DNA from: Elusimicrobiota bacterium
GTDB taxonomy: Bacteria; Elusimicrobiota; Elusimicrobia; Elusimicrobiales; UBA9959
Reading direction: 5' to 3'
Assembly (NCBI GenBank): GCA_016209085.1
Contig: JACQWV010000061.1
Coordinates: 21,710 to 85,709 of the forward strand
DNA: 64,000 nt
The notes below the pieces were generated by a model. That model saw only the letters and a program-made list of their open reading frames with translations, made no database searches and had not been told where the DNA came from. Numbering within the stretch: position 1 is the stretch's first letter; every line of letters begins with the position of its first letter. Of this stretch, positions 3 through 63,634 are shown piece after piece. The position numbers and the translations under genes are program-made.

Positions 3-788
3 GTTTTTTGCTGCATCAATGCTCCTTTTGGAAAACCAGGTATTCGCTATAGAAGCCCCGATCTTGTCGTTAAAGAGATCGGAGTACTAGTAAATAACTA
101 TGGAATAAAAAACATTAAAATTGTGGATGAACTTTTCGTCTTAAACGAGAAGCATTACATGACAATCGTTGACATGTTGATTGAGAAAGGCTATGACCTG
201 AATATCTGGGCATATGCAAGGGTTGATACTGTCAAGCCCGAGAATCTGCAAAAGATGAAAAAAGCAGGCATAAACTGGCTTGCCCTTGGAATTGAATCAG
301 CAAATCCTGATGTAAGAGACGGCGCTGAAAAGAGGATGAGGGTTAAAGATATAAAGCATGTTGTGCAGGCAATACAGGATGAAGGCATAAGGGTGATAGG
401 TAATTATATTTTTGGTCTGCCTGATGATAATTTGGAAACGATGCAGGAAACTCTGAATATGGCAATGGAGCTAAATTGTGAGTTCGTAAATTTCTATTGC
501 GCTATGGCATATCCTGGCTCGAAACTCTATGAGATTGCTATCAGGGAAGGATGGCAACTTCCCAATAAGTGGCATGGTTTTTCGCAACACTCTTACGAGA
601 CGCTACCTCTGCCGACAAAACATATCAGCGCTAAAGATGTCCTGAAATTCAGGGATGACGCTTTCCATAAATATTTTGAGAATCCGGATTATTTAAATAT
701 GGTTCAGCAAAAATTCGGCAGTGAAGTTGAAAGTCATATCAGGGAGATGACAAAAACGCGACTAAAAAGGAGATTGCTTGAAAGTTAA
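3..788 (+). CDS. radical SAM enzyme (B12-binding class), 5'-truncated by the window edge
   Basis: Frame 3 is open from nt 3 (VFCCINAPFGKPGIRYRSPDLVVKEIGVLVNNYGIKNIKIVDELF...). The track ORF 123..788 is therefore only the part after an internal GTG. A Cys-rich loop is followed by a radical-SAM-core-like sequence. A second radical SAM gene starts 40 nt downstream. Confidence 0.7.
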   Translation, partial: VFCCINAPFGKPGIRYRSPDLVVKEIGVLVNNYGIKNIKIVDELFVLNEKHYMTIVDMLIEKGYDLNIWAYARVDTVKPENLQKMKKAGINWLALGIESANPDVRDGAEKRMRVKDIKHVVQAIQDEGIRVIGNYIFGLPDDNLETMQETLNMAMELNCEFVNFYCAMAYPGSKLYEIAIREGWQLPNKWHGFSQHSYETLPLPTKHISAKDVLKFRDDAFHKYFENPDYLNMVQQKFGSEVESHIREMTKTRLKRRLLES

Positions 789-828
789 TTTTCAGTTTCA
801 TTCCGACTAATTTAATGAAGAAATCAGT

Positions 829-2544
829 ATGACAAAAGTACTCCTGATGAATATTCCTGGAGCAGTACTTCCATCGGATTATCCGCCAATAGCGATATCA
901 AGAGTTATTGAAGGGATAGATCCTTCATTGAACTGTGAAGCATCGTTTTATAATTTGGACTACTATAGACCTGATTTTGATGAAATAAAAAATAAGATTC
1001 AATCATGTGCGCCAAAAATTATTGGCTTTAGCGCAATATTAACGCCTTATTACGCCTACCTTAAAAGCTTGTCTAATTTCATTGGTGAAAAATTCCCGGA
1101 TATTATTCAGGTACTAGGCGGGCAGATGGCTGTAATATCTAATTTGATTCTTTTAAAAACAAAGGTTGATTTTTGTGTTATCGGCGAGTCGGAGCCTACT
1201 TTTAGCAATCTCATACGCAGACTCAAAGAAAATAATTTTGATATCAAGGATATGGGAAATTATACAGATATAAAGGGTCTTGGTTTTTTAAGGAATGATT
1301 TACCCTTTTTTATAGGGTACGAAAAGGAAGATACGCAGAAAGGTTTAAGGCAATTCAATTATAAAATAATGTCGAAATTTACATCTTTGGATAATTACAT
1401 TCATGGAGTTGATGGCCAGTATTTTAAAATCAGACTTGGTAATAGCAATATAAAACATTTTTTAAAATTACTCTACCACGATAATATACATAAAAATTTA
1501 GCTACTGTTTTTGCCAGCAAAGGCTGTGTAGGTAGATGTACTTTTTGCCATAGATATTATAAGGGATACAGAGTGACTGATTTTAATGAGCTTGTCAATT
1601 ATATCAATGCTTTAAAGAGAGATCATAACGTTGGAATGATATTGTTTTCAGAGGAAAACTTCGGAAGCAATAAAAAATTTACATCAAGACTTGTAGAATA
1701 TTTAAAAACAAGCGGTCTTAATTGGGCTGCGGGTGGTGTGAGGGTTAAAACTGTAGATGAAGAAACAATGAAGACATGGAAAGAGGCTGGCTGTGTACAT
1801 ATAAACTTTGGGATAGAATCCTTCTCTCAGAAAATGCTTGATATTATGGAAAAGAATGCGACTGTTGAGGAGAATATGAATGCTATTAGAATGTGTTATA
1901 AATACAAGATTTTTACTGTTCCTGGCATGGTTTTAGGAATGCCTGGCGAAACGGAAGAAACAATAGAAGAAACAATTAATAAGTTTTCGACGCTTATCCC
2001 GGATGATATGGATTTCCCTTTTGCAAATTATATTAATTTTGTTCAGGCCATACCAGGGATGCCATTGTATGGATATGCCAAAAGATTAGGCTTTATCGGA
2101 CGGTCCATCGAAGAAGAGGAGAAATACATAGAGAGTCTTTATGATGTAAATGCAAATGAAATAAAACATTATTTAAACTTCACCGATTACGAAAAAGAAG
2201 AGATAGCTTACTGGTGGTATTATGTTTATTTGGAACTGATTGCCGCATATATTGAAAAATTTGGTTATATAAATGTGTTAAAACATAAAAAGACCAAGCA
2301 ATATAAGGCTGGACTCATATATATTCTTTTACCAAGAAAGATGAGAAAATTTCTATTAAAATATATTGTGCTGGTTAAGGATTTTGGTGCCAAAGGATTA
2401 GTACATATCATTATTAAAAAAGTAATTAAAATATTTAATAATAAAAAAGCTGAAAGATTTAAAGAAGTTAATCGTTCTTTAAGGAAAATCAATTCGGAAA
2501 TTCCTCTGTCGTTGCGTGAAGACGAAGTTAGTCTGCCGCAGTAA
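829..2544 (+). CDS. B12-binding-domain radical SAM protein
   Basis: 571-aa ORF with an N-terminal Rossmann-like B12-binding-type region. CVGRCTFC matches the CxxxCxxC SAM-cluster motif. Its position at the head of a polysaccharide locus suggests sugar modification. Confidence 0.75.
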   Translation: MTKVLLMNIPGAVLPSDYPPIAISRVIEGIDPSLNCEASFYNLDYYRPDFDEIKNKIQSCAPKIIGFSAILTPYYAYLKSLSNFIGEKFPDIIQVLGGQMAVISNLILLKTKVDFCVIGESEPTFSNLIRRLKENNFDIKDMGNYTDIKGLGFLRNDLPFFIGYEKEDTQKGLRQFNYKIMSKFTSLDNYIHGVDGQYFKIRLGNSNIKHFLKLLYHDNIHKNLATVFASKGCVGRCTFCHRYYKGYRVTDFNELVNYINALKRDHNVGMILFSEENFGSNKKFTSRLVEYLKTSGLNWAAGGVRVKTVDEETMKTWKEAGCVHINFGIESFSQKMLDIMEKNATVEENMNAIRMCYKYKIFTVPGMVLGMPGETEETIEETINKFSTLIPDDMDFPFANYINFVQAIPGMPLYGYAKRLGFIGRSIEEEEKYIESLYDVNANEIKHYLNFTDYEKEEIAYWWYYVYLELIAAYIEKFGYINVLKHKKTKQYKAGLIYILLPRKMRKFLLKYIVLVKDFGAKGLVHIIIKKVIKIFNNKKAERFKEVNRSLRKINSEIPLSLREDEVSLPQ

Positions 2545-2546
2545 AC

Positions 2547-30934: not shown

Positions 30935-31022
30935 AGGATGAACGCACGAGCTTCGCTCGTTTTTTGAAGGCGTTCACCTTTCTTTAATAACTGAAAGGTC
31001 GCCGGTTCAACTATTTATCTAC

Positions 31023-31094
31023 GGGATTGCCGTAAGCGGCGACGATAACGGATATTTTCATAAAAAAATATGGACCCGACCGGGATTGAACCGG
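31023..31094. repeat. 72-bp direct repeat, copy 2 (truncated GT2 5' end plus 3' end of the intact tRNA-Ala)
   Basis: See copy 1. It encodes a relic MKISVIVAAYGNPVDK* on the minus strand. Confidence 0.9.
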
Positions 31095-31143
31095 CGACCT
31101 TACCCATGCCAAGGGTACGCTCTCCCAGCTGAGCTACGGGCCC
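31071..31143 (-). tRNA. tRNA-Ala (anticodon GGC)
   Basis: Hand-folded, 73 nt. Acceptor GGGCCCG/CGGGUCC with the G3:U70 Ala identity pair, anticodon loop UUGGCAU, T loop UUCAAUC. No encoded CCA. Confidence 0.9.
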
Positions 31144-31331
31144 ATAAACGGCAGTAACCAGTTACCAGTATAAGCAAGTAACCAGTAACTACAAAAAGAG
31201 CAAAGAAATAACGGCAGCTTGCCCGCCAACGCAGTGTGGCGGGTAATCAGTGACCAGTGGCCGGCAGCCACATAGAAAATATTTTAACAATTTTATGATA
31301 TAAATTAAAAATCTTGTAAAATATTTTTATT

Positions 31332-33398
31332 GTGTTTGAAAAAGTTCCGAGAATCATACGCTTTCTGCTTTTCAGCGTTCTCATTAATCTTCTGATTTTC
31401 TCGTCAATGAGGATTGCGTTCTTTTTGATATTCCGCAATCTGGATGAGATTATTCCGTTTGCGCTATTATGGAAGTCTTTTTACCTTGGATTTAAATTTG
31501 ACCTCAGGCTGGCGCTTCTGATAAATCTGCCTCTCCTGTTTTTGTTTAACGTCAGAAAAATTCATGCGTTTGAGAGCGTTTCCGGAAAAAGACTATGGAC
31601 CGCTTATTTCAGCCTGAGCGGCGCGGTTATACTGCTTTTTTATATTTTTGATTTCGGGCATTACGCGTATCTTCAGACCAGACTTAACGCAGCTGCTTTC
31701 AAGCTTCTTGCCAATCCTCTTATTTCTCTGAAAATGCTGTGGGAAACCTATCCAGTGATATCCGGCATCGCCGGAATCGGGTTGTTCAGCGCTCTTTACG
31801 GATATGCTTATAAAAGGGTTTTATATGGCCTGACGCAGGCGGAATCAATCAGCCGAAAAAAACAGACAGCCGTAGTGATTTTTACCGCAGTGTTTTTTGC
31901 AGCCGGAATTTACGGGAAATTTTCTTACTATCCCCTGCGCTGGTCCGACGCTTTTTTTTCAACTCGCTCATTTGCCTCCAACCTTGCCTTAAATCCGGCG
32001 CTTTATTTTTTTGACACTTTTAAAAGCAGGGATGAGGGTTTTGATATTGAAAAAGTGAAAACGTATTATCCTCTGATTGCCGATTATCTCGGAGTAAATC
32101 CCCCTTACTCCCCCTTTACCCCCACGCCAACCCGGTTGGTGTGGGGGTTTACAAAAGGGGGAAAAGAGGGGTATTTTACAAAAAAAATTGATTTTTCAAG
32201 GCGCGTAAGTTTTGCCGGAAAACAAACCAGCAATAAAAAAATAAACATAATCATAGTTCTGCTTGAGTCTTTTGCCGCTTATAAAAGCGGGATATTCGGC
32301 AATCCTCTGAATCCCACTCCTCATATGGACGGGCTGGCGAAAAATTCATGGCTTTTCAGAAGATTTTACGTCCCGAGCGAAGGAACCGCCCGTTCGGTGT
32401 TTACTCTTGTCGCTGGAATCCCCGACATAGAAATAAACGCCACTTCAAGCAGAAATCCCGCTATAGTCAAACAATCCACCGTTTTAAACGCTTTTAAAGG
32501 TTATGAGAAATTCTATTTTCTGGGCGGCAGCGCCACATGGGCCAACATAAGAGGGCTTCTTTTCCATAACGTGCCGGGGCTGAAAATATACGAGGAAGGC
32601 AGTTATGATTCTTCAAGGGTTGACGTGTGGGGGATTTCTGATTTGAATCTCTTTGAAGAGGCAAACAGGGTGTTAAAAAAATCCAAGGGTCCGTTTATCG
32701 CGATTATCCAGACCTCAGGCAGTCATAGGCCATATACCATACCCAAAGACAACAGGGGATTTAAAGTAATGCCCATGAAAGACGAAGAAACGGCTAAATA
32801 CGGGTTCGTATCCTCCGCTGAATTTAATTCATTCAGATTCCTGGACCACAGCGTGGGCTTTTTTATGGAAACAGCCGGAAAAGAAAAATATTTTGAGAAT
32901 ACCGTTTTTGTTTTTCTAGCTGACCATGGCCTTCCCGGTAAGGCTCCTCACATGGGGAAAGCCGAAGAACTTCTTGAATTGACCAGGTTTCACGTTCCTT
33001 TTTTGATTTATTTCCCCAAGGCGACGCAAAAGGGGGCTGTTTTTGACGGGATAGTCACTGAAATGGATGTTCTGCCCACCTTGGCTTCAATGGCTGGGAT
33101 TCCCCATCTTAATACGGGGTTCGGCAGGGACATGTTTGACAGGCGTTTTGACAAAAAACGCCGCGCTTTTACCCTTATCGCCGACGGCCCGGATCCGACG
33201 ATAGGGCTTTTAACCGATAAATTTTATTTTGCGATGAATAGAAGCGGAAAAAACAAAAGATTGCATGACTATCATTCAAAAACTCCCGGAGACAACCTTT
33301 TTGGAAAACATCCTGAAATTTCATCGGAAATGGAGAATTTTTTGAACGCTTTTTATGAAACCGCCAGATACGTGCGCTATCATAATCACAGCAGGTGA
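31332..33398 (+). CDS. LtaS/MdoB-like membrane sulfatase-family transferase (phosphoglycerol/phosphoethanolamine transferase-like)
   Basis: N-terminal TM helices and a C-terminal alkaline-phosphatase-superfamily domain (IIVLLESF, SGSHRPY, FLADHG). GTG start. Carries an in-frame palindromic insert at 32098..32176. Confidence 0.7.
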   Translation: MFEKVPRIIRFLLFSVLINLLIFSSMRIAFFLIFRNLDEIIPFALLWKSFYLGFKFDLRLALLINLPLLFLFNVRKIHAFESVSGKRLWTAYFSLSGAVILLFYIFDFGHYAYLQTRLNAAAFKLLANPLISLKMLWETYPVISGIAGIGLFSALYGYAYKRVLYGLTQAESISRKKQTAVVIFTAVFFAAGIYGKFSYYPLRWSDAFFSTRSFASNLALNPALYFFDTFKSRDEGFDIEKVKTYYPLIADYLGVNPPYSPFTPTPTRLVWGFTKGGKEGYFTKKIDFSRRVSFAGKQTSNKKINIIIVLLESFAAYKSGIFGNPLNPTPHMDGLAKNSWLFRRFYVPSEGTARSVFTLVAGIPDIEINATSSRNPAIVKQSTVLNAFKGYEKFYFLGGSATWANIRGLLFHNVPGLKIYEEGSYDSSRVDVWGISDLNLFEEANRVLKKSKGPFIAIIQTSGSHRPYTIPKDNRGFKVMPMKDEETAKYGFVSSAEFNSFRFLDHSVGFFMETAGKEKYFENTVFVFLADHGLPGKAPHMGKAEELLELTRFHVPFLIYFPKATQKGAVFDGIVTEMDVLPTLASMAGIPHLNTGFGRDMFDRRFDKKRRAFTLIADGPDPTIGLLTDKFYFAMNRSGKNKRLHDYHSKTPGDNLFGKHPEISSEMENFLNAFYETARYVRYHNHSR
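32115..32152. repeat. 38-bp palindromic element, intragenic copy
   Basis: TTTACCCCCACGCCAACCCGGTTGGTGTGGGGGTTTAC. The second copy is at 54274..54311. C-runs and G-runs on either side extend the palindrome to about 32098..32176. Confidence 0.85.
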
Positions 33399-33453
33399 TA
33401 AGGTGATACTGAGTAAGTAACTAAAAAATACAAATTTGATACAATTTATGTTT

Positions 33454-33679
33454 TTACTGAGCTTCGCAGAAATAATGGATACGTTGGAGGCTCAGATTTG
33501 GATTGGATGCAAGGCGCGACGAATAAGCATAGCGTCTGCTATGTGAGTGAGGAGCAACGCAGCAGACGGCCAAATATGAGCCTCCCCTTTCCCTTGAAGG
33601 GAAAGGGGCTGGCCGCTTTTCTGTCTCGCTCAAAAATCGGCTCAGCCAGCGTACCCATTATTTCTGCGAAGCTCAGTAA
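33454..33679. repeat. nested-palindrome element (MITE-like or structured leader) upstream of glgP
   Basis: A perfect 23-bp inverted repeat ACTGAGCTTCGCAGAAATAATGG (33456..33478 and 33655..33677) encloses two further stems. These are GGAGGCTCAGATTTGG/CCAAATATGAGCCTCC and the hairpin CCCCTTTCCCT-TG-AAGGGAAAGGGG. Confidence 0.8.
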
Positions 33680-33692
33680 TGGAGGAACATTC

Positions 33693-36257
33693 ATGAAAAT
33701 AACTTCATTTAACGTTGTTCCCAATCTTCCGGAAAATTTAAAAGCATTGAACGAGCTGACTGAAAACATGTGGTTTACATGGAACTGGGACGCCATAATG
33801 CTGTTCGTCGGAATTGACGAGGATTTGTGGCACAGGTCGCACAGGAATCCCAAATGGATGCTGGGCGCTCTTCCGCCCGAAAGGTTTGAAGCGTTGAGCA
33901 GGGACCAGGCCTTTCTTGAAAAGCTGGAAAAAATTAAGAATAAGTTTGACGCTTATATGAACTGCCCAGACACATGGTTCAGCAAAAACTGTCCTCCTGA
34001 CATGAAGGATTTCACGGCGGCTTACTTTTCCATGGAATACGGAATCGGGGAAGGACTTCCGATATATTCAGGAGGGCTCGGCATGCTTTCAGGGGACCAT
34101 TTGAAAACAGCGAGCGAGCTGGGTATTCCTGTCTTTGCGGTGGGCTTGCTGTACAGGAAGGGCTATGTCCAGCAGGTTCTGAACAGGGATAACTGGCAGG
34201 TGGAAAGGTATCCGGAGAATGACTGGTACAACATGCCGGTTCAGATAGTCAATGATTCTTCAGGCAATCCGCTCCGCATAGATTTGAACCTGGCCGGCGA
34301 AAACGTGCAAGTCGGGATATGGCGCGTTCCTGTGGGCAGGAATTCGCTGTTTCTGCTTGACACGAACCTTCCTGAAAACAAGGCTCATGTCAGGAGCATA
34401 ACCGAACAGCTTTACGGAGGAGACAGGGAAAACAGGATATGCCAGGAAATAGTTTTAGGCGTAGGCGGGGCCAGGGCTCTTGAGGCAATGGGCGTCAATC
34501 CCTCGGTTTACCATGTGAATGAAGGTCATTCGGCTTTTCTGCTTTTTGAACGGATAAGGCAGTTCATGAAAAACAGGAAGATTTCTTTTGAAGAGGCCAA
34601 GGAAGCGGTCTGGAGTTCCTCGGTTTTTACCACACACACCCCGGTCATAGCCGGCAATGAATATTTTGATTTTGAGTTGGTGCGGAAATACATGGAGTCG
34701 TATTCCGGGGAACTCGGAATATCATGGCCCGAGTTCCTTGAAATCGGAAAGGAGGAACCTTCTTCAACTACTTTCTGCATGACGATTCTCGCGTTGAGAT
34801 TATGCGCTTTTCTGAACGCTGTAAGCCGCCTGCACCGCGATACGACGCGGGACATGTGGCAGAAAATATGGTCCGGGCTTGCGAAATATGAAATTCCGAT
34901 TTACGGCATAACCAACGGGGTGCATACCTGCTCATGGATAAGCCACGAGCATCTGGATTTATATAAAAAATACGCGCTCAGGGACAGTCAGAGCATTGAA
35001 GACCTGCCTGAGAACTGCGACTGGCAGAAAATCATGGACATTGACGATAGGGAATTCTGGGAAGTTCACATGTCCAGAAAGAATAAATTGATAAACATGA
35101 TAATCCGGGAGAGAATGCAGAGGCAGTATAAGCGGCTTGGAGCCGACGCCACTGTTCTGGAGGAAATAAAAAACGTCTTAAATCCCGGCTATCTGACCAT
35201 AGGCTTTGCCAGGAGATTCGCCTCTTATAAAAGGGCCAATCTGATTTTCAGGAATCCCGACAGACTTCTTGAAATAGCTGCCAGCGACAAAATGCCGGTG
35301 CAGTTCGTTTTCGCGGGCAAGGCGCACCAGGCCGACGCTTTCGGCAAGGAAATAATAAAAGAAGTGGCCAGATACAGCATGGACAAGAAGTTCAAGCAGA
35401 GAATTGTTTTCGTGGAAGATTATAACATGAACGTCGCGCGATACATGGTGCAGGGAGTCGACGTGTGGCTTAATAATCCGGTAAGACCTCTTGAGGCTTC
35501 GGGAACAAGCGGGATGAAAGCGGTCATTAACGGCGTTTTAAATCTCTCCGTTCTGGACGGCTGGTGGATGGAAGGATATTCCTCGCAGACAGGATGGGCC
35601 GTCGGGGGCCTGGAAAATTACAGGGACGACGCTGAAAGGGATTATGTGGAATCGGAATCCATATATAATCTCCTGCAAAAAGTCATAGCCCCGCTTTATT
35701 ACGACAGGGGCGAGGACGGAATACCGCACGGCTGGATAAAAATGATGAAAAACTCAATCGTCAGGCTCGTTCCCGAATTCAACACAAACCGGATGCTTAA
35801 AGAATACTGGGAAAAATTTTACGGCCGCGCCTATTCAATGAACAAGAGATTGCTGGACAACGGCAAAGTCATGGAGCTTGCAAAATGGCGGAAGAAAATC
35901 AGAGACAACTGGCAGAAAGTCAAAGTCGTTCTTGAACCTTTCAAACCCATGATGGAAATACATTCGGGCGCGAAAATCCCGGTAAAAGCGCGCGTGTGGC
36001 TTGGAGATTTGACGCCTGAAGACGTGGACGTGCAGGTTCACATAGGAAGCATTGACGGGGACGTTTTTTTCAAACAAGGGACTTCTTTCAGCATGGGGTG
36101 CGAGTCTCATCAGGGGGACGCCTGGATTTTCAGGGGCGACATAGTATGCGTAAAAAGCGGCAAGCACGATTTTGCCGTAAGGGTCGTTCCCAAACATCCT
36201 GACATCGTGCATCCCTACATGCCTTTGTTCATTAAATGGAATGACGAGGGTAGTTGA
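33693..36257 (+). CDS. glgP: alpha-glucan (glycogen/maltodextrin) phosphorylase, GT35
   Basis: Start moved to the ATG after GGAGG (MKITSFNVVPNLPENL...WFTWNWD). EASGTSGMK is the PLP-lysine motif. The track start 33498 would translate the palindromic leader. Confidence 0.9.
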   Translation: MKITSFNVVPNLPENLKALNELTENMWFTWNWDAIMLFVGIDEDLWHRSHRNPKWMLGALPPERFEALSRDQAFLEKLEKIKNKFDAYMNCPDTWFSKNCPPDMKDFTAAYFSMEYGIGEGLPIYSGGLGMLSGDHLKTASELGIPVFAVGLLYRKGYVQQVLNRDNWQVERYPENDWYNMPVQIVNDSSGNPLRIDLNLAGENVQVGIWRVPVGRNSLFLLDTNLPENKAHVRSITEQLYGGDRENRICQEIVLGVGGARALEAMGVNPSVYHVNEGHSAFLLFERIRQFMKNRKISFEEAKEAVWSSSVFTTHTPVIAGNEYFDFELVRKYMESYSGELGISWPEFLEIGKEEPSSTTFCMTILALRLCAFLNAVSRLHRDTTRDMWQKIWSGLAKYEIPIYGITNGVHTCSWISHEHLDLYKKYALRDSQSIEDLPENCDWQKIMDIDDREFWEVHMSRKNKLINMIIRERMQRQYKRLGADATVLEEIKNVLNPGYLTIGFARRFASYKRANLIFRNPDRLLEIAASDKMPVQFVFAGKAHQADAFGKEIIKEVARYSMDKKFKQRIVFVEDYNMNVARYMVQGVDVWLNNPVRPLEASGTSGMKAVINGVLNLSVLDGWWMEGYSSQTGWAVGGLENYRDDAERDYVESESIYNLLQKVIAPLYYDRGEDGIPHGWIKMMKNSIVRLVPEFNTNRMLKEYWEKFYGRAYSMNKRLLDNGKVMELAKWRKKIRDNWQKVKVVLEPFKPMMEIHSGAKIPVKARVWLGDLTPEDVDVQVHIGSIDGDVFFKQGTSFSMGCESHQGDAWIFRGDIVCVKSGKHDFAVRVVPKHPDIVHPYMPLFIKWNDEGS

Positions 36258-36371
36258 AAATCCTCCCAAATAATGTATAATATAATGTGCCGGGTTTTGT
36301 AAATCCCGGTGCTTTTGTCGGTACTTTTCCGGCAGGAGCTAAGTTAAGTAGAAAGCGAGGTATAGTAAGAA

Positions 36372-36578
36372 ATGGCAAAAGGCAAAGTAAAGTGGTTTAA
36401 CGATAAAAAGGGATTCGGTTTTATAGTCCCTGATGATGGTTCAAAGGATCTCTTTGTGCATCATTCTTCCATTCAGGGAGACGGCTTCAAAACTCTGGCT
36501 GAGGGCCAGGAAGTGGAATATGAGCTGGAGAATACCGACAAGGGTCCGAAGGCTGTCAATGTGAAGAAAAGTAAATAG
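36372..36578 (+). CDS. cspA: cold-shock protein (CSD)
   Basis: [16 protein letters not shown] and DLFVHHS are the RNP1 and RNP2 motifs. 68 aa. Confidence 0.95.
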
Positions 36579-36610
36579 GTTTTTTGAAAACACGATTCAA
36601 AAAACTCACT

Positions 36611-36642
36611 CCGCCCCGGCTTTGCGTCGGGGCGGTTTTTTT
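36611..36642 (+). terminator. rho-independent terminator after csp
   Basis: CCGCCCCG-GCTTTGCGT-CGGGGCGG followed by TTTTTTT. Confidence 0.85.
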
Positions 36643-38149: not shown

Positions 38150-38242
38150 GTTAAAGAAGTGATTAAGAGATTGAGTGATTGAGAGATTAAGTGATTTAGC
38201 TTTTAAACTTAATTACTTAATCACTATTTGCTTAATCACAAA
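38150..38242. terminator. long imperfect hairpin built from GATTAAG/GATTGAG words between convergent genes
   Basis: GTGATTAAGAGATTGAGTGATTGAGAGATTAAGTGATTTAGC ... CTTAATTACTTAATCACTATTTGCTTAATCAC. The two arms are approximate reverse complements. Confidence 0.5.
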
Positions 38243-40194: not shown

Positions 40195-40914
40195 ATGCCG
40201 GCATTTGATCCTTTGGAGCTGAATTATTCAAAAATAAAGGCTTATCTGAATTGTCCTTTTCTTTACAGATATGCGTATGTGGAAGGCAAATACGCTCCTC
40301 ATAACCCCCAGTCTTCGCTTGGCGTATCCGTGCACCGCGCTATTGAAGAATATTCCAAGAGAGGAGGGGATTTAAACGATTTGTTCGTGTATTATGAAAC
40401 CGGCTGGCTGAACCAGGGATATCCCTCGCCCCGGGAAAGCATGGAATTTTACAGGAAAGGCAGCGAGATTCTTGAAAACTACTGGCTCGGGGAGCAAGGG
40501 AGAGATTCGGAGATAATACTGGTTGAGAGGGATTTTGAATTTTCTTTTGAAAAATGGAAAGTCAAAGGCACCATGGACCGGGTTGACAGACTGAAAGACG
40601 GTTCTCACGAGCTTATTGATTATAAAATGGGTTTTGAAGATAGAAACGATCATGACATCTCAGGAAGCCTTCAACTGGGAATTTATGCCATAGGCCTTAA
40701 GAGAGCTTTCAACATAGAAGTTAAAAAACTGACCTACTGGCTGCTTTTAAAATCGGAAAAGATATCGTGTCTTTACAATCCCGGAAACGAGGAAAAAATT
40801 TTTTCCGTTCTCAGAGATACGGGAGAAAAAATTCTGAGAGAAGATTATTCAAAAAAAGGGAATTGCAGCGCCTGCCAGATAAAAAAGCGCTGTCCGGACA
40901 AAACAGCAAGTTGA
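40195..40914 (+). CDS. PD-(D/E)XK nuclease, Cas4/AddB-like with 4-Cys cluster
   Basis: An N-terminal Cys (NCPFLYRY), D...ELIDYK, QLGIYA, and a C-terminal C-x2-C-x5-C (CSACQIKKRC). Confidence 0.65.
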   Translation: MPAFDPLELNYSKIKAYLNCPFLYRYAYVEGKYAPHNPQSSLGVSVHRAIEEYSKRGGDLNDLFVYYETGWLNQGYPSPRESMEFYRKGSEILENYWLGEQGRDSEIILVERDFEFSFEKWKVKGTMDRVDRLKDGSHELIDYKMGFEDRNDHDISGSLQLGIYAIGLKRAFNIEVKKLTYWLLLKSEKISCLYNPGNEEKIFSVLRDTGEKILREDYSKKGNCSACQIKKRCPDKTAS

Positions 40915-40993
40915 TAAGATGATAAGTTGATACGGTGATAAGTAAAAAATTTTTCACTTATAACCTTGTCACCTTATAAACTTGTCTCCTTAT
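40905..40993. terminator. GATAAG-word hairpin between convergent genes
   Basis: GTTGATAAGATGATAAGTTGATACGGTGATAAGT-AAAAAATTTTT-CACTTATAACCTTGTCACCTTATAAACTTGTCTCCTTAT. Confidence 0.5.
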
Positions 40994-42242: not shown

Positions 42243-42812
42243 ATGAAGTACCTTCTTAATGTAAAGAATTTAAACTCTGAATTCGTCCGCGAGATACAGG
42301 CTGAAAGTAAAACCAGGATTCTGCACTGCTACCAGTGCGGCAAATGCTCGGCCGGGTGTCCCATCGCCAATGAAATGGAGTATAAACCCAATCAGATAAT
42401 CAGAATGATTCAGCTTGGAATGGAGGAATCCGTTCTTAAGGCAAATACGATGTGGCTATGCGCCTCCTGCATTACCTGCACGGTCAGGTGCCCCCGCGAA
42501 ATAGACATAGCCGAGATAATGGACGTGCTCAGAAGATACGCGTTTAAAAGAGGAATATTTCCAGCTGCAGTGGCCGACATTCCTGTTTTCAACAGGATAT
42601 TTCTGCGCAACATCAAACTTTTCGGCAGGCTTTACGAACTGGGATTGATAGGTTTTTTTAATCTTTTGACAGGCAATCCTTTCAAGGACGTTTTGCTCGG
42701 GCCTAAAATGTTTTTCAAAGGCAAAATAAACCTTATTCCGGAAAGGATAAAGAACGCTTCCGAGATAAAAGACATTTTTAAACGCTCCGCCGAAATTGAA
42801 CATAGTGATTAA
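42243..42812 (+). CDS. hdrC: heterodisulfide reductase subunit C-like
   Basis: CYQCGKCSAGCP and CASCITCTVRCP ferredoxin-like motifs. Located upstream of hdrB and hdrA. Confidence 0.8.
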   Translation: MKYLLNVKNLNSEFVREIQAESKTRILHCYQCGKCSAGCPIANEMEYKPNQIIRMIQLGMEESVLKANTMWLCASCITCTVRCPREIDIAEIMDVLRRYAFKRGIFPAAVADIPVFNRIFLRNIKLFGRLYELGLIGFFNLLTGNPFKDVLLGPKMFFKGKINLIPERIKNASEIKDIFKRSAEIEHSD

Positions 42813-42935
42813 GTCATTGCGTGATTAAGAGATTAAGCATGAGTGAAAGGTCTAACAGTCTGCTAATAAACTGCATATGAGTAAATCACTGAATCACTTA
42901 CTCACTAAATCACTTATTCATTTAATCACTTATTT
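42804..42935. repeat. GATTAAG/AATCAC word-stutter inverted repeat between hdrC and hdrB
   Basis: The 5' arm is AGTGATTAAGTCATTGCGTGATTAAGAGATTAAGCATGAGTG. The 3' arm is GAGTAAATCACTGAATCACTTACTCACTAAATCACTTATTCATTTAATCACTT. Confidence 0.6.
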
Positions 42936-47117: not shown

Positions 47118-48187
47118 TAAGTGAAATGAAAAAATTTATTATCAGCAAAAATGAGTTAAAGAAAATTCTGGCCGGGATTGTTGCGGAGAATATAAAACTC
47201 ATTGCTCCGGTTTCAAGGGATAACGCTTTTTTTCTGGAAGAGGTCAGTGATGCAGAAAAAATCGCATGGGATTATTCAAATGTCGTAAAACCGGTTAAGG
47301 AGCATATTTTCCCGATGAGGGAAGTTCTTTTGGATTTCGGCAGGGGGACAGATCCCCCTGCACTTGATGAGCCAGAGGCTCGTTCTTCCGGCAAAGAGAA
47401 AAATCCGGCAGGGAACATGCCTCCGGTTAAAGAACAGGTAATATTCGGCTTAAGGCCCTGTGACGCGCGCTCCCTTCTTGTATTGGATAAACCATTCTTG
47501 CAAGAGAAATACGTTGATTCGTATTATAAGGAAAGGCGGGAGAAAACCACCCTTATTGCAATGGCGTGTCTTAATCCGGAAAAAACCTGCCTGTGCTCTT
47601 CTTTTGAAAACGGCGGTCCTTTTTCTTCTGCCGGAAGCGACGTTTTGTGCGTGCAAACCGGGCAGGACGAATTTTTGGTTGAAATCTTGTCTGAAAAAGG
47701 GGAAAAAATATTTAAAAATCCGTCTTTTGCGCAACCTTCCGGAGAAGTTCTGAAAAAGTTGGAAAATCTTAAGGCGGATTCAGAGGCAAAAATCTGCAAG
47801 GCCCTTAAAGTTCCTGAAAACCTGCGGGAGCTTTTTGAAGCAGGTACTTGGGAAACAGAATCCCTTTCCTGCATTGCGTGCGGAATCTGCAGGTATCTGT
47901 CAGCCACCTGCTATTGCTTCAACATTACGGACGAGTTTGAACAGCGTCTCAGGTACTGGATACCGTGCAGTTTTAAAAACTACACAAAAATGACTTCAGG
48001 CGAGATTTCCAGGGAGAAAAAAAGCGCAAGATTCAAGCACTGGTATTTTCATAAATTTTCCTATCACAAGGACAATTTCGGGGAATATCTGTGCGTGGGC
48101 TGCGGCAGGTGCATAAAATACTGCCCCGTAAAAATAGATTTTACCGAAGTGCTTGGAAAAATAGGAAACAGCAAACAGGAACAGTGA
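47114..48187 (+). CDS. Fe-S protein, FlxB/AsrA/HydB-like
   Basis: FGLRPCDARS, CIACGICRYLSATCYC and CVGCGRCIKYCP motifs. The start may instead be 47126. Contains an in-frame repeat at 47339..47392. Confidence 0.6.
   Translation: MISEMKKFIISKNELKKILAGIVAENIKLIAPVSRDNAFFLEEVSDAEKIAWDYSNVVKPVKEHIFPMREVLLDFGRGTDPPALDEPEARSSGKEKNPAGNMPPVKEQVIFGLRPCDARSLLVLDKPFLQEKYVDSYYKERREKTTLIAMACLNPEKTCLCSSFENGGPFSSAGSDVLCVQTGQDEFLVEILSEKGEKIFKNPSFAQPSGEVLKKLENLKADSEAKICKALKVPENLRELFEAGTWETESLSCIACGICRYLSATCYCFNITDEFEQRLRYWIPCSFKNYTKMTSGEISREKKSARFKHWYFHKFSYHKDNFGEYLCVGCGRCIKYCPVKIDFTEVLGKIGNSKQEQ
47339..47392 (+). repeat. GC-rich multi-hairpin repeat, copy A (intragenic, sense)
   Basis: GGCAGGGGGACAGATCCCCCTGCACTTGATGAGCCAGAGGCTCGTTCTTCCGGC. 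It matches the reverse complement of 61367..61420 at 51 of 54 nt. Confidence 0.9.
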
Positions 48188-53747: not shown

Positions 53748-54089
53748 GATAAGTTCCTCCTTGCTTGAGCGGCATTTTTAAAATGCCGCATACTGAACGT
53801 GATTTTTTTGTGTTATTATATCCCGGTACTTTGTGCTAAGTTTCGGAGGTGGGAGAAACTTAACGCGCCCGACTTTCGCCGACTGGCGGAGCGGGACTTC
53901 ACTTCGCAGGTAGGTTTGAGACTTTACGGATACCGGCGAAGCTTGTAAGATACGGAAACTTCTGCTTTAAATTATGATACCAAAAACCGCAAAAATTGTC
54001 AAGTGTTATGGAAAATACTGACATTTTAAAAAAATTTTGACAAGCGAAATCAAAATGAAGTTGTAAATTTGTATAATAAATAAATCAGC

Positions 54090-54272
54090 ATCATTGCGCG
54101 GGGGAATCCTGTGAGAAGCAGGAACTGCCCCGCAACGGTGATACCCTGCATAGTTTAGCGGGGGTAAGTCCGGTCCACCGCGCATGCCTCAAGGCGGTAT
54201 TTCCGCCTACTGTGGCAGGTCTCCGTGGGGAGAAACAGGATAAACCCTGCCTTGCGGAGGCGGGGTTTTTTG
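54090..54272 (+). promoter_or_regulatory. cobalamin riboswitch with intrinsic terminator
   Basis: P1 is GCGCGG...CCGCGC. The aptamer core is GGGAATCCTGTGAGAAGCAGGAACTGCCCCGCAACGGTGA, with a B12-box-like GTAAGTCCGGTCCACCGC. The terminator is CCCTGCC-TTGCGGA-GGCGGGG plus TTTTTT. btuFCD-like genes lie downstream. Confidence 0.8.
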
Positions 54273-54273
54273 A

Positions 54274-54311
54274 TTTACCCCCGCACCAACCCGGTTGGCG
54301 CGGGGGTTTAC
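54274..54311. repeat. 38-bp palindromic element, intergenic copy
   Basis: TTTACCCCCGCACCAACCCGGTTGGCGCGGGGGTTTAC. It lies between the riboswitch terminator and the btuF RBS. Four differences from 32115..32152, all within the stem. Confidence 0.85.
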
Positions 54312-54330: not shown

Positions 54331-55134
54331 ATGAAAATTCTGATTTTTGTTCTGATGAACTGTATGCCCGGTTTTTCGCAGGAAAAGGAGCAGCGGATTG
54401 TCTCGCTCATGCCGTCTTACACGGAGATAATTTTTGAATTGGGCGCAGGCAGCCGTCTGGCCGGAATTTCTAATTTCTGCAATTATCCTCAGGGAACAGC
54501 CGGCATTGAAAAAATCGGGGATTATTTCACCCCGAACATTGAAAAGATATACTCTATGAGGCCTGATATTGTGTTTGCAGGCAAATGGAAAAATTCAAAA
54601 GCTGTTTCTGCTCTTAAAAACCTGGGGATTAACTTGGTGGAAATTTCCGAGGAGCGCAAAATTGAAGATATTTTCGCGACAATCAGGATCATCGGGAAAA
54701 ACACCGGCTCGGAAAAAAGAGCCGGAATCCTTGTGTCCGGCATGAAAAAGGAGCTCGGTAAAATAAAAAAGTCCTCCAAAAAGACTGCAAAAAGCGTTTA
54801 CGCTGAAATTGACAGGGGATACTGGACCTGCGGAAAAAATTCTTTTATATCGGACGTGATTAAGAAAGCAGGGGGGAAAAACGTCTTTTCCGGCGTTAAT
54901 ATGCCTTATTTCCAGGCTTCATGGGAGGACGTGATAAAGGCAAAGCCGGAAATAGTGGTTTTGATTAATTCGGAAAAAGAGGAATTTCTGAAAAGGCCGC
55001 TCGCGGAGAAAATACCGGCGGTGAAAAGCGGAAAAATAATAACAGGCATTGACAAGGATGTTATTTCAAGGCCCGGCCCGCGCATAATTTCCGTCATAAA
55101 ACAGCTTAAAAAGGAATTTGATGGCAAAAATTAA
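54331..55134 (+). CDS. btuF: periplasmic cobalamin/siderophore-binding protein of an ABC importer (BtuF-like)
   Basis: Start moved to the ATG after GGAGGAAG (MKILIFVLMNC). RIVSLMPSYTEIIFELG is a class III SBP motif. It is under a cobalamin riboswitch. Confidence 0.75.
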   Translation: MKILIFVLMNCMPGFSQEKEQRIVSLMPSYTEIIFELGAGSRLAGISNFCNYPQGTAGIEKIGDYFTPNIEKIYSMRPDIVFAGKWKNSKAVSALKNLGINLVEISEERKIEDIFATIRIIGKNTGSEKRAGILVSGMKKELGKIKKSSKKTAKSVYAEIDRGYWTCGKNSFISDVIKKAGGKNVFSGVNMPYFQASWEDVIKAKPEIVVLINSEKEEFLKRPLAEKIPAVKSGKIITGIDKDVISRPGPRIISVIKQLKKEFDGKN

Positions 55135-61048: not shown

Positions 61049-63634
61049 TATTCCCGCTTTTTCGCTTATTTTCTCAGACAAATCAATGAATTCCTGATTC
61101 TCGCCCGCATTTCTGGAAATATCAATCAGGAAATTCTGGATGTGAAATATCAGGTCATCCATCCGGAGCATTTTTGAAATTTCAAGAATGCTGCCGACCA
61201 TTTTCAGATTTTCAGCCGTCGGGCTTGTTTTAAAATCTATCAGTATTTTTAAAAACTTCAGCAGGGTTTCGGCCTCCGGCTGTATCTGGACTTTGATTCC
61301 GTGTTTTGTCAATTTTTCCGAAAATCCGATAATCTTTTCAAGCAAGGCCGGAACAGCCGCACCGCGGCCGGAGCAACGAGCCTCTGGCTCATCAAGTGCA
61401 GGGGGCTCTGTCCCCCTGCCACAGGTGCCGTGAGTTATACGAACGGCCTCTTCCCGGATGTGTATAAACTCGTTAAGATAAGAATTTATCAAATATTTTG
61501 CGCATCTTTTTATTTCATCGGCAGGATCCCTGCCCGGCTCAAAACCGTTCCCCGACAAATGCTCCATTAACAGAAAATGCTCTTCAATAGCGCTTTCAAA
61601 CGCGGCTCTGTGTTTTGTCTGGATGTTACGGGAAACAAGTTTAAATACGGACAGTTTCTCTGAAAAAGGCAGAGTCTGAAGGTCGACTGCCGTAAATCCT
61701 TTGATTGCTTGCGGGGTTTTATCGGCGTCCAAGAGAGATACGGCGTTTTCAAAAACTTTCTGCGCGTCGTTTTTTGAGAGGTATATGGCCGGAAGAGACG
61801 TCGCCGTTTCGGAGAGACATGCAAAAGTCTTTCTGAATTCTTCTCCTGTCGTTTTATTCCTGAGATTGAGAATGCCCGCCGCTGACATGTTTTTCTTGAT
61901 TAATTTTTCAAAGCCGGCAACGTAGCCGTAGAGATAAGGAAATTCTTTGTCCTGATAAATCGTTCTAATCAAAAAAGCCGCGAAGATATGCTCCAAAGAA
62001 GGGACTGAAGAAATTACAAGTCTTTCATAAATTTCCAGGCCGTTCGCAGCGCTCGCGGCACATGGGGGTCGGGTGGCATAGCGCCCGACACTTGATGAGC
62101 CAGAGGCTCGTTGTTCCGCGGCAGCGCCGCTGTTCCGTCCGTTTCCATATGAGGTAAAATTTGAAGGAGCGGTTTCAAGCAGAGAAAGAAATCCTTTTTC
62201 CAGGCCTTTATAGCCCAGATCCTCTGCTGTTTCAACGGCTTTTGCCGCGTATTTCAGATTCTGGACCGCTTCTATGCGGGATATGTCTGAAAAGAACCAG
62301 CCGCAGCTTGTAAACATGTACATGGAGTTCTTCTGCATTTCAAGCAGTTTAACGGCTTTGATTTTCTCGGCGCGTTCAAGAGTCCTTTCGGAGTTTCTGG
62401 AGAAAAACGAGTTGAAGTTCTCTTCTGACCTGTCAATCATCAGGTTTATGTAATCGTTTCTTGCCTGCCAGACATCCCTAAAAAGCGGAGCCGCCTCTAC
62501 TTTGTAAATTTCATACAATGCGTCCCTGAGCCAGTTCATGGCGGCTCTTAACGGATGCCTCCAGTTGAGGTGAAAATTTTTTTCCTTTCCGCACTCGCAG
62601 CCGCCTTTCCATCTTCTGACTCCGTGGAAACAGCTCCATGAAGCGCCTTCTCCGTCCGGGCCTTTTTTGAGTTCAACTTCTAAGTGGGGTTTGTGGTCGC
62701 TGAGGAACAGGGAAAGGCTTGTCGTTTCTATGCCGTATTTTTTTAATTCGTGCCTGAACGCATGCGCAATCGTCATATCCGCGAATTTATGGTGATGCCC
62801 GTAGCTTTCCCCGTCCGCCGCTATCAGCACGAGCTGGTCCCGGGTCGGGTCCGTATAACAGAGGGAAATTCTCCGGACAAAATTTTCGGAGTTTTTCAGA
62901 GCGTCTTCAAACGAGACTGCCCCGGAAATTCCGGCATCGTAAAAGAAAACCGCTATGCTTCTGTGTTTGATTCTGTTTCCTTCGGCATCCCTGTCGCGCC
63001 AGGCATAAGGCTTTTTCGGGTCAATGCTTCCGTTTGAAACATCTGTCCATTTATTCGTTTCAGGAGACTTTATTTTTTCAGCCTGATGGGGGGACAGAAT
63101 CACGTATTTCATTCCGTGGTCAATCAGGAGTCTGAGAGTGTCTTCATTGACGGCTGTTTCCGGCAGCCACATCGCCTCGGGCCTGAAGCCGAACCTGTAT
63201 TCAAAATCCTTTATGCCCCACACAATCTGGGTTACCTGGTCCTGAAAACTCGCCAAAGGCATTATTATGTGATTATATGCCTGGGCTATCGCGTTCGGAT
63301 GTCCGCTTGAATCTTTTATCCTCCCGACCGTGTTTACAATCTGCTCATGGATGAAAGGATATTCTTTTTCCAGCCAGTTCAAAAGCGTGGGGCCGAAATC
63401 AAAATTCAGATATTCATAATTGTTTACTGCTTCTATTATTTTCCCTGCATTATCGGTTATTCTGGCATAAAGATTGGGGATGTAACATTCCCTTGATATT
63501 CTCCGGTTCCAGTTGTCATAAGGATAGGCAGAAGGATCAAAGTCAGGCTCGCCGGTCCAGGGATTTTCCCGCGGCGGCTGATAAAAATGCGCGTGAACCG
63601 CTAAACATTTTTTCGCTTGTCTGGTTTCCGGCAT
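61013..63634 (-). CDS. GH57 family glycoside hydrolase (DUF3536 type)
   Basis: LAVHAHFYQPPRENPW N-terminus. WLPETAV and DGESYGHH motifs. 873 aa. Carries two in-frame repeat copies. Confidence 0.8.
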   Translation of the reverse strand: MPETRQAKKCLAVHAHFYQPPRENPWTGEPDFDPSAYPYDNWNRRISRECYIPNLYARITDNAGKIIEAVNNYEYLNFDFGPTLLNWLEKEYPFIHEQIVNTVGRIKDSSGHPNAIAQAYNHIIMPLASFQDQVTQIVWGIKDFEYRFGFRPEAMWLPETAVNEDTLRLLIDHGMKYVILSPHQAEKIKSPETNKWTDVSNGSIDPKKPYAWRDRDAEGNRIKHRSIAVFFYDAGISGAVSFEDALKNSENFVRRISLCYTDPTRDQLVLIAADGESYGHHHKFADMTIAHAFRHELKKYGIETTSLSLFLSDHKPHLEVELKKGPDGEGASWSCFHGVRRWKGGCECGKEKNFHLNWRHPLRAAMNWLRDALYEIYKVEAAPLFRDVWQARNDYINLMIDRSEENFNSFFSRNSERTLERAEKIKAVKLLEMQKNSMYMFTSCGWFFSDISRIEAVQNLKYAAKAVETAEDLGYKGLEKGFLSLLETAPSNFTSYGNGRNSGAAAEQRASGSSSVGRYATRPPCAASAANGLEIYERLVISSVPSLEHIFAAFLIRTIYQDKEFPYLYGYVAGFEKLIKKNMSAAGILNLRNKTTGEEFRKTFACLSETATSLPAIYLSKNDAQKVFENAVSLLDADKTPQAIKGFTAVDLQTLPFSEKLSVFKLVSRNIQTKHRAAFESAIEEHFLLMEHLSGNGFEPGRDPADEIKRCAKYLINSYLNEFIHIREEAVRITHGTCGRGTEPPALDEPEARCSGRGAAVPALLEKIIGFSEKLTKHGIKVQIQPEAETLLKFLKILIDFKTSPTAENLKMVGSILEISKMLRMDDLIFHIQNFLIDISRNAGENQEFIDLSEKISEKAGILPGKDIIGCAG
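61367..61420 (-). repeat. GC-rich multi-hairpin repeat, copy B (intragenic, sense relative to its host gene)
   Basis: The reverse complement reads GGCAGGGGGACAGAGCCCCCTGCACTTGATGAGCCAGAGGCTCGTTGCTCCGGC. Confidence 0.9.
62068..62120 (+). repeat. GC-rich multi-hairpin repeat, copy C (intragenic, antisense relative to its host gene)
   Basis: GTCGGGTG-GCATAG-CGCCCGAC followed by the identical 24-nt core CACTTGATGAGCCAGAGGCTCGTT (62089..62112). Confidence 0.8.

Follow-up and report, generated by a model that had tools for sequence, protein, structure and literature searches.

Elhai and colleagues reportedly described in 2008 the small dispersed repeats SDR1-8 of Nostocaceae, dispersed stem-loops of 21-27 nt that show compensatory changes, are mobile, nest in other repeats and move by an unknown mechanism. 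In the passages of PMC5861425 and PMC3116915 that cite them, SDRs appear as confined to one cyanobacterial group. Here we describe a comparable element in a 64,000-nt stretch of an Elusimicrobiota genome (contig JACQWV010000061.1, positions 21,710 to 85,709; hereafter the window), in which one copy of a GC-rich palindrome lies within an LtaS/MdoB-like sulfatase gene and a second copy lies in the leader of a B12-uptake operon. We propose that this palindrome is probably an ultra-small, non-autonomous mobile element, comparable to SDRs and to the miniature transposable elements with inverted repeats known as MITEs, which consists of 29 bp, makes a 4-bp target-site duplication (TSD) and is moved by a transposase acting in trans; it would rank among the smallest pieces of mobile DNA so far known. 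SDRs are functionally its closest counterparts: it is likewise very short and non-coding, forms a compensated stem-loop of 20-30 nt, gives evidence of mobility, nests in other repeats and sits at specific short targets. Unlike SDRs, it occurs in unbinned contigs and in metagenome-assembled genomes (MAGs) that bear the labels Elusimicrobia and Chloroflexota, and it is a perfect 29-nt palindrome over its full length with a 4-nt duplication; the likeness drawn here is one of description.

Bacterial MITEs (Correia/NEMIS, RUP, ERIC, Nezha) are non-coding, carry terminal inverted repeats (TIRs) and a TSD, form hairpins in transcripts and can be fused in frame to open reading frames (ORFs) (PMC10969869). 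The window element shares all of these traits, and it too is a short non-coding unit bounded by TIRs, but its size is far under the usual range, because MITEs of ~70-500 bp hold internal sequence whereas this element has two 14-bp arms only and is several-fold smaller. It is moreover GC-rich in a genome of 44% GC, whereas MITEs are usually AT-rich, and it has no known cognate insertion sequence (IS): none with the same TIRs was found among the 50 ORFs of the window, nor did solitary half-sites occur in the sequences collected. Comparison of empty and filled sites revealed a TSD in an epimerase family, whereas the window copies show direct repeats only. Dispersed copies number 2 in the 64-kb window, and one Chloroflexi MAG has at least 18 copies of a variant.

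Repetitive extragenic palindromes (REPs) and their paired form, REPINs, are associated with the RAYT transposases (Bertels & Rainey 2011, PMC3116915; Di Nocera et al. 2013, PMC3733652), and REPs sometimes lie inside ORFs and are translated (PMC3733652). The window element resembles REPs in being a dispersed palindrome of 20-40 nt, and its Chloroflexota relatives adjoin GTAG-tagged palindromes. Unlike REPs, the window copies are solitary and have TTTA(C) on both sides in place of a terminal GTAG or CGTC, the tag GTAG being found only after the Chloroflexota variant; whereas REPs insert without duplication, a 4-nt duplication is evident in the epimerase comparison, and no RAYT gene was found among the 50 window ORFs. 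Rickettsia palindromic elements (RPEs; Ogata et al. 2000) lie in frame in unrelated genes that are left intact, in permissive parts of the protein, according to the section of PMC10969869 that treats them. The window element is likewise an in-frame palindromic insertion in a gene that stays intact. RPEs are ~100-150 bp long, restricted to Rickettsia and encode a conserved peptide, whereas the insert in the window is 29 nt (69 nt with an outer layer) and has no peptide match; to our knowledge, RPEs show no target duplication of such a kind. In-frame palindromic insertions are therefore an already known phenomenon (REPs in ORFs, RPEs). Yeast mitochondrial DNA also contains mobile G+C-rich palindromic clusters of ~30-50 nt, which are optional, occur for instance in var1 and have short duplicated target flanks. 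The window element is similarly a GC-rich palindrome in an AT-richer genome, within a coding region and with duplicated flanks, but the yeast clusters are organellar, eukaryotic, unrelated in sequence and spread by gene conversion in crosses. New here are the small size (29 bp, with arms that enclose nothing), a duplication that could be demonstrated, a constant increment of 33 bp that keeps the frame, and the spread over distant lineages.

Results

A palindrome inserted in frame in the LtaS-like gene

The sulfatase gene of the window is uninterrupted. Its product is identical to NCBI MBI4656310.1 from an 'Elusimicrobia bacterium' MAG, homologues at 48-58% identity align with it across 96-100% of the length, and the Pfam Sulfatase domain (PF00884, E = 5e-39) spans residues 305-590. 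An earlier note on this DNA had placed a palindromic element in frame in the linker ahead of this domain, and the region is indeed translated there, as LGVNPPYSPFTPTPTRLVWGFTKGGKEGYFTKKIDF. Residues 259-281 are missing from 23/23 aligned homologues (48-58% identity), and because the gap is present in all 23 we read this segment as an insertion; the linker between LGV and the conserved Arg290 is of equal length in all of them. The features of the locus are as follows.

31332..33398, + strand: LtaS/MdoB-like membrane-anchored sulfatase-family enzyme, 688 aa, intact ORF
32106..32174, + strand: 69-nt insertion, 23 aa, residues 259-281, YSPFTPTPTRLVWGFTKGGKEGY; boundaries slide by 1-2 nt
32100..32118: outer hairpin, left arm, CCCCCTTACTCCCCCTTTA; in part ancestral and coding (ccc cct for the conserved Pro)
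32115..32118: left TTTA, putative 4-nt target duplication (from the sequence and by analogy with empty and filled epimerase sites)
32119..32147, no strand assigned: inner element, copy 1, CCCCCACGCCAACC-C-GGTTGGTGTGGGGG, 29-nt palindrome with a single G.T in the stem
32148..32151: right TTTA, putative target duplication (same basis)
32152..32171: right arm of the outer hairpin, CAAAAGGGGGAAAAGAGGGG
Deduced empty inner site (slash, point of insertion): ...CCCCCTTTA / CAAAAGGGGG...

In the AlphaFold2 (AF2) model of the protein (mean pLDDT 79), residues 259-284 form a coil with pLDDT <50, as expected of a segment without alignment depth, between helix 239-253 and strand 290-292, the latter lying ahead of the sulfatase fold. 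Despite the low pLDDT, the predicted position of the insert in the linker between the membrane and sulfatase domains is clear, and the protein presumably still works. A phmmer search of 1.84 billion representative proteins with the 30-aa composite peptide returned two matches only, both spurious and to repeat proteins; without a real protein match, the 69-nt composite does not, therefore, recur as a translated unit. The element peptides themselves, at 9-11 aa, are too short for phmmer, yielding E ~1e3-1e4 at that database size in a local test.

The 38-nt core TTTACCCCCACGCCAACCCGGTTGGTGTGGGGGTTTAC (32115-32152, + strand) forms the palindromic stem claimed in the earlier note, and 0/100 shuffles of the window gave a match. 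It contains two inverted arms of 14 nt around one central base, hence 29 nt, with the consensus arm CCCCCACACCAACC. The proposed extension of the palindrome by C-runs and G-runs was also borne out, since 32100-32117 and 32154-32171, the outer arms, show 78% complementarity and the segment 32095-32180 folds as RNA at -52.2 kcal/mol (z = -6.5), which 0/200 shuffles achieved. Although self-complementarity over ~75 nt is thus present, the mobile unit appears to be the 29-nt palindrome plus a 4-nt duplication and not the 38 or ~75 nt given previously. The ~75-nt palindrome is a composite, in which a 33-nt unit occupies the loop of a separate 36-nt C-run/G-run hairpin. Deletion of 32119-32151 (33 nt) in silico gives ...AAT CCCCCTTACTCCCCCTTT ACA AAAGGGGGAAAAGAGGGG TAT..., and the LtaS-like gene is then still 36 nt (12 aa) longer than its homologues and still has a hairpin, CCCCCTTT-ACA-AAAGGGGG within CCCCCTTACT...AAAAGAGGGG. 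We infer that the two layers were nested with the inner element inside the outer hairpin. The outer layer may go back to an earlier insertion by a different short element, represent the same element in a longer form, or stem from local inverted duplication of the C-run/T-run target; its right arm is similar to the reverse complement of the left flank, and nested G/C-run hairpins also enclose the Chloroflexota variant described below (L016, L009). The TTTAC on each side of the palindrome is best read as the target duplication TTTA followed by either the first C of the element or the next base of the target.

Two other features lie close to the start of this gene. An AT-rich palindrome with 31-nt arms (31269-31334) overlaps the start of the ORF, and a tRNA-Ala(GGC) gene (31070-31144, - strand) has a perfect 16-nt inverted copy of part of itself 75 nt away (30995-31010 vs 31086-31101), which may be the remnant of an integration site.

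Empty and filled sites in an epimerase gene

Five contigs of the metagenome Ga0180009 carry the palindrome within an NAD-dependent epimerase gene, where sites with and without it could be compared. Nearly all of the 120 homologues listed (60-100% identity) read SHPAAAGRVFNVTDG or a close variant, and 7 of the 120 read SHPAAAG-PHTNPVGVGAG-RVFNVTDG, an in-frame gain of 11 residues. At the DNA level, the empty site (L033 twice, L035, L036) is GCGGCAGGTCGGG, and the filled site (the L028 copy at 487, and L034) is GCGGCAGG / CCCCCACACCAACCCGGTTGGTGTGGGGG / CAGGTCGGG, which is longer by 33 nt. On sequence alone, this increment can be read as the 29-nt palindrome plus a 4-nt CAGG duplication, with 28+5 or 27+6 equally possible. 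In the 29+4 register, the flanks of the sites compared are as follows.

Window copy 1: left TTTA, right TTTA
Window copy 2: left TTTA, right TTTA
Epimerase site: flanking repeat CAGG
L030: left CGCG, right CGCG
L032 (terminal pair T..A instead of C..G): left TAAA, right TAAA
L007: left TTCA, right TGAA; inverted, the exception

Direct repeats of 4 nt were therefore found at 5/6 independent sites, the chance for a single site being 1/256.

Five epimerase copies (L026, L027, L029, L031 and the L028 copy at 2276) have a 10-nt deletion, TGCGGCAGGC, beside the left end of the palindrome. This deletion shifts the frame and splits the gene, and the downstream ORF begins at a GTG within the right arm of the palindrome (MGAGRVFNVTDG...); since many further differences separate these copies, the split form seems to persist. 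Epimerase genes and fragments are interleaved with toxin-antitoxin modules (PIN, DUF4258, NTP_transf_2, UPF0175).

A second copy in the leader of a B12-uptake operon

The second copy (core 54274-54311) is intergenic, as the earlier note had said, and lies between a terminator and the start codon of a BtuF-like gene.

54075-54211, + strand: AdoCbl (adenosylcobalamin) riboswitch-like aptamer (Rfam RF01482, 43.1 bits against a gathering threshold of 50, E = 1.5e-6)
54242-54268, + strand: intrinsic terminator after the aptamer (terminator scan)
54274..54277: left TTTA, putative target duplication
54278..54306, no strand assigned: inner element, copy 2, CCCCCGCACCAACC-C-GGTTGGCGCGGGGG, intergenic
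54307..54310: right TTTA, putative target duplication
54331..55134, + strand: BtuF-like periplasmic binding protein (Peripla_BP_2, PF01497), followed by FecCD (PF01032) and an ABC ATPase (PF00005)
Deduced empty btuF leader site: ...TTGATTTA / CGGCGGG...

Copy 2 starts 9 nt past the terminator stem and ends 24 nt ahead of the ATG at 54331, and the aptamer is probably a real AdoCbl riboswitch. The two copies differ at core positions 10, 12, 26 and 28, all within the stem as first noticed. The pair 10/28 changes on both sides, from A-T in copy 1 to G-C in copy 2, whereas at 12/26 copy 1 has G.T and copy 2 has A.C. No T-tract adjoins either copy and neither was flagged in the terminator scan. In Rfam, searched at gathering and permissive thresholds, the only matches were to long-hairpin miRNA precursors (<=30 bits against gathering thresholds of 63-230).

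Several known kinds of site were considered for the palindrome and rejected. Its core sites do not fit the GTTRRRY of an attC site, its 14-nt arms with a 1-nt spacer do not fit a dif/Xer site, and a perfect palindrome over the full length would be atypical of a solo CRISPR repeat. It is not an intrinsic terminator, as it has no T-tract, and the hairpin flagged as a terminator at 54242-54268 is a different one, located upstream of copy 2.

Both copies were recovered in independent Logan assemblies with identical sequence. Copy 1 is present in three runs (SRR12113404, SRR12113406 and SRR12113399), and copy 2 is present in SRR12113406, with the identical sequence in Logan contig L040; two further Logan contigs stop at the palindrome centre of copy 2. 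Sister alleles were also sought with two BtuF start variants and the last ORF of the window, for which no database record was found.

Distribution of the palindrome beyond the window

A search with the pattern CCCCNNNCCAACCCGGTTGGNNNGGGG, which has 21 fixed bases and for which ~0.3 chance matches are expected on both strands of 596 Gb, returned 22 loci in contigs of species-representative genomes, a collection that did not include the window's own contig. Nineteen of these are in the Chloroflexi groundwater MAG JACRBK01, and one each is in an Anaerolineae, another Chloroflexota and an 'Elusimicrobia bacterium' MAG (L007). A variant-restricted pattern further matched 7 unbinned JGI metagenome contigs. 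The palindrome thus forms a family, as had been suggested, and is neither limited to the two window sites nor part of a linker conserved at protein level. An exact-pattern scan of viral contigs gave 0 matches, blastn of the 38-mer against plasmids and phages gave only partial matches at chance level (E >=1), the core 13-mer sequences did not occur in the literature searched, and a solitary 14-nt arm or half-site was found in none of the sequences collected.

Complementarity holds at the three free base pairs of every match: ACA/TGT, TCT/AGA, GCA/CGC (with one A.C), ACG/TGT (with a G.T) and ATA/TGT (with a T.G). Across nine distinct variants, 99% of the cells pair, 3 pairs change two-sidedly and 0/500 shuffles reached the covariation score, only the free pairs and the terminal one being informative, since all other positions were set by the pattern. 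The copies in the Chloroflexota MAGs are a variant with compensated changes in the arms. There may be two modes of spread, one of solitary copies of the ACA/TGT type and one of copies of the TCT/AGA type inside larger repeats. By record name and accession range, two of the host MAGs appear to come from the same groundwater study.

In the Chloroflexi MAG JACRBK01 (loci among L001-L022), the copies lie in mosaic repeats of ~120 nt that are built from modules in the order GTAG-tagged palindrome GGGCGCAGCAAGCnGCGCCCCTAC, spacer, hairpin CCCCTCTCC-loop-GGAGAGGGG and then GTAGGGGGTGAGGC. The hairpin loops vary (AACCCGGTT, AACCGGGTT, AACTGAGTT, ATGCAAT and others), some copies are without the hairpin module (for example L013 near 2286), and, relative to the flanks, the hairpin has its central base in one orientation or the other (12 vs 9). 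In L007, the neighbours of the palindrome are a small GIY-YIG gene (484..741, - strand), a four-helix-bundle Avd-like ORF (777..1043) and a reverse transcriptase ORF (1493..2545), an arrangement (484-2545) that, judged from the translations, resembles a diversity-generating retroelement.

Other repeats in the window

A 222-nt MITE at 33455-33676 has perfect 22-bp TIRs (CTGAGCTTCGCAGAAATAATGG / CCATTATTTCTGCGAAGCTCAG) and a TA target duplication (33453-54 and 33675-76), lies 16 nt upstream of the alpha-glucan phosphorylase gene (ATG at 33693) and contains a hairpin with an 11-bp stem, CCCCTTTCCCTTGAAGGGAAAGGGG, at 33584-33608. Logan contig L023 (SRR12113404) lacks it and has the empty site gtttttTAatggagg, while being identical in all else over 31065-36620. 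This MITE is therefore an insertion polymorphism in the sampled population, and we count the presence of active mobile DNA there in favour of mobility of the palindrome.

A third family of short repeats within ORFs is a 54-nt two-hairpin unit, GGCAGGGGGACAGATCCCCCTGCACTTGATGAGCCAGAGGCTCGTTCTTCCGGC, at 47339-47392 (+ strand) and 61367-61420 (- strand), the two copies being 51/54 identical, lying in unrelated genes and translated as GRGTDPPALDEPEARSSG in a Fer4_22 protein and as GRGTEPPALDEPEARCSG in a GH57/DUF3536 protein. The same GH57 gene also holds, at ~62066-62120 (+ strand), an incomplete antisense copy whose first hairpin is different. This unit has no match in Rfam, and it is not a hammerhead ribozyme, as it contains no GAAA.

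Twin hairpins, CCCCCGAC-TCT-GTCGGGGG (2547-2565) and CCCCCGAC-TCCT-GTCGGGGG (2618-2637), lie 52 nt apart right after a radical-SAM gene; because the three independent Logan contigs L037-L039 all end inside the first, it seems to be a multi-copy genomic repeat. Long AT-rich intergenic palindromes at 38158-38225, 40908-40991 and 42804-42930 consist of inverted tandem octamers (AGWGATTR; GATAAG-type at 40908) and are presumably the 'first' palindromic family to which the earlier note alluded.

Discussion

A duplication whose length is constant while its sequence varies is the hallmark of a DDE-type transposase making staggered cuts. Because the duplication that accompanies the palindrome is of this kind, we favour MITE-like movement in trans, which seems to us the likely explanation. 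The element encodes nothing and must therefore be moved in trans: a putative enzyme would recognise the arms, make staggered cuts as a DDE transposase does and move the palindrome. Insertion of the 29-bp palindrome with its 4-bp duplication would add 33 bp, or 11 codons, and since this net gain is a multiple of three, insertions within genes preserve the reading frame and would survive where the protein segment is permissive. Copy 1 would have landed in the disordered linker of the LtaS-like protein, in the loop of a pre-existing 36-nt hairpin, so that the two layers together add 23 residues, and copy 2 would have landed in the leader of the B12-uptake operon just past the riboswitch terminator.

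Several observations weigh against this explanation. No empty site was found for the insertions in the window, where the Logan assemblies either carry the element or break at it, and the closest LtaS homologue is 57% identical. A Pfam search of the 50 window ORFs found no transposase and no Y1/RAYT protein, these ORFs being ordinary chromosomal genes (a polysaccharide biosynthesis cluster, gap, pgk, secG, the LtaS-like gene, alpha-glucan phosphorylase, Hdr/Mvh-like genes, btuFCD and GH57 enzymes), and the half-site search of the sequences collected found no parent IS with these arms. The 64-kb window holds 2 copies only, and because the patterns fixed 21 bases the census beyond it is biased and a lower bound. 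The L007 flanks are inverted (TTCA/TGAA) and not direct, and the Chloroflexota copies have no flanking duplications and are embedded in larger, REP-like mosaics. Finally, TTTA followed by C occurs at both window sites, which points either to a target preference or to TTTAC being part of the element.

The last of these points would suit an element of the REP/REPIN type, moved as single-stranded hairpin DNA by a RAYT (an HUH Y1 enzyme, IS200/IS605-like) for which TTTAC is the fixed cleavage or target motif; TTAC is a comparable fixed motif of IS608. The size and hairpin shape suit REPs, the TTTAC is identical on both sides at both window copies, the mosaics of the Chloroflexi MAG hold the GTAG-tagged palindrome GGGCGCAGCAAGCnGCGCCCCTAC with GTAG directly after the related hairpin, and REPs within ORFs are documented (PMC3733652). 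However, the flanks vary outside the window (CAGG, CGCG, TAAA), the window copies bear no GTAG or CGTC tag and are solitary rather than in REPIN pairs, and the Pfam search of the 50 ORFs found no Y1 transposase gene in the window. The empty and filled epimerase sites moreover show a true duplication of target bases, whereas insertion of the IS200/IS605 type yields no target duplication. We therefore regard movement by a RAYT as unlikely. That no transposon took part at all, the palindrome having been copied during repair or replication (for example through a template switch onto an ectopic hairpin copy, or when a staggered break captures a hairpin oligonucleotide) or all 69 nt having arisen by local inverted duplication of the C-run/T-run target, we consider rather improbable. 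The outer arms do resemble a local reverse complement (CCCCCTTT(T)AC vs (GT)AAAAGGGGG), neither a mobilising enzyme among the 50 window ORFs nor a parent IS was found, and the 69-nt composite is not translated elsewhere among the 1.84 billion representatives; yet the inner palindrome has no local template, and the occurrence of the same 29-nt palindrome at 6 unrelated sites in different organisms, with precise ends and a duplication of constant length at 5/6, would be hard to obtain from untargeted repair.

The hairpin might instead be kept for a benefit to the host, such as ribosome pausing or mRNA stability, a protein-binding DNA site or extension of the linker, with mobility incidental. It folds very stably (-52 kcal/mol, z = -6.5), two-sided changes keep the arms paired, and copy 2 stands in a regulatory leader between riboswitch terminator and ribosome-binding site. 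Against a shared function, the contexts are unrelated (LtaS linker, B12 leader, epimerase core, intergenic DNA), no U-tract follows that would make an intrinsic terminator, no Rfam family was found at threshold, and the mismatch on the sense strand is G.U-compatible in copy 1 but A.C in copy 2; the 10-nt deletion that splits the epimerase in five metagenome copies also looks like damage. We hold host benefit to be very improbable as the explanation. As for an artefact of assembly or binning, palindromes can produce chimeric joins, and two Logan unitigs stop exactly at the centre of copy 2; nevertheless, three independent assemblies and the NCBI MAG agree exactly on copy 1, both its flanks continue one intact ORF, and copy 2 is spanned by an independent contig, which leaves this explanation with next to no probability.

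Returning to the ultra-small mobile element moved in trans, we tentatively raise the broader possibility, itself doubtful, that it represents a distinct class of minimal mobile element spread over bacterial phyla. Members of such a class would consist of just two binding arms for a transposase or other nuclease or integrase, possibly a widespread host or IS enzyme, would have a 33-bp step tuned to the reading frame, and would colonise coding as well as intergenic DNA and seed loops in proteins. If the palindrome does move as we propose, a complete transposable unit can be just 29 bp, which is under the size sought by MITE and repeat finders, and such insertions would therefore have been overlooked or mistaken for lineage-specific protein loops. 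The increment of 11 codons would provide a simple route from mobile DNA to in-frame protein indels, as in an envelope enzyme and a sugar epimerase, and that the palindrome is found in such dissimilar bacteria suggests horizontal spread, either of the element or of whatever mobilises it. With its arms defined and both empty and filled sites known, the element would also offer a tractable case for how cyanobacterial SDR-type repeats move.

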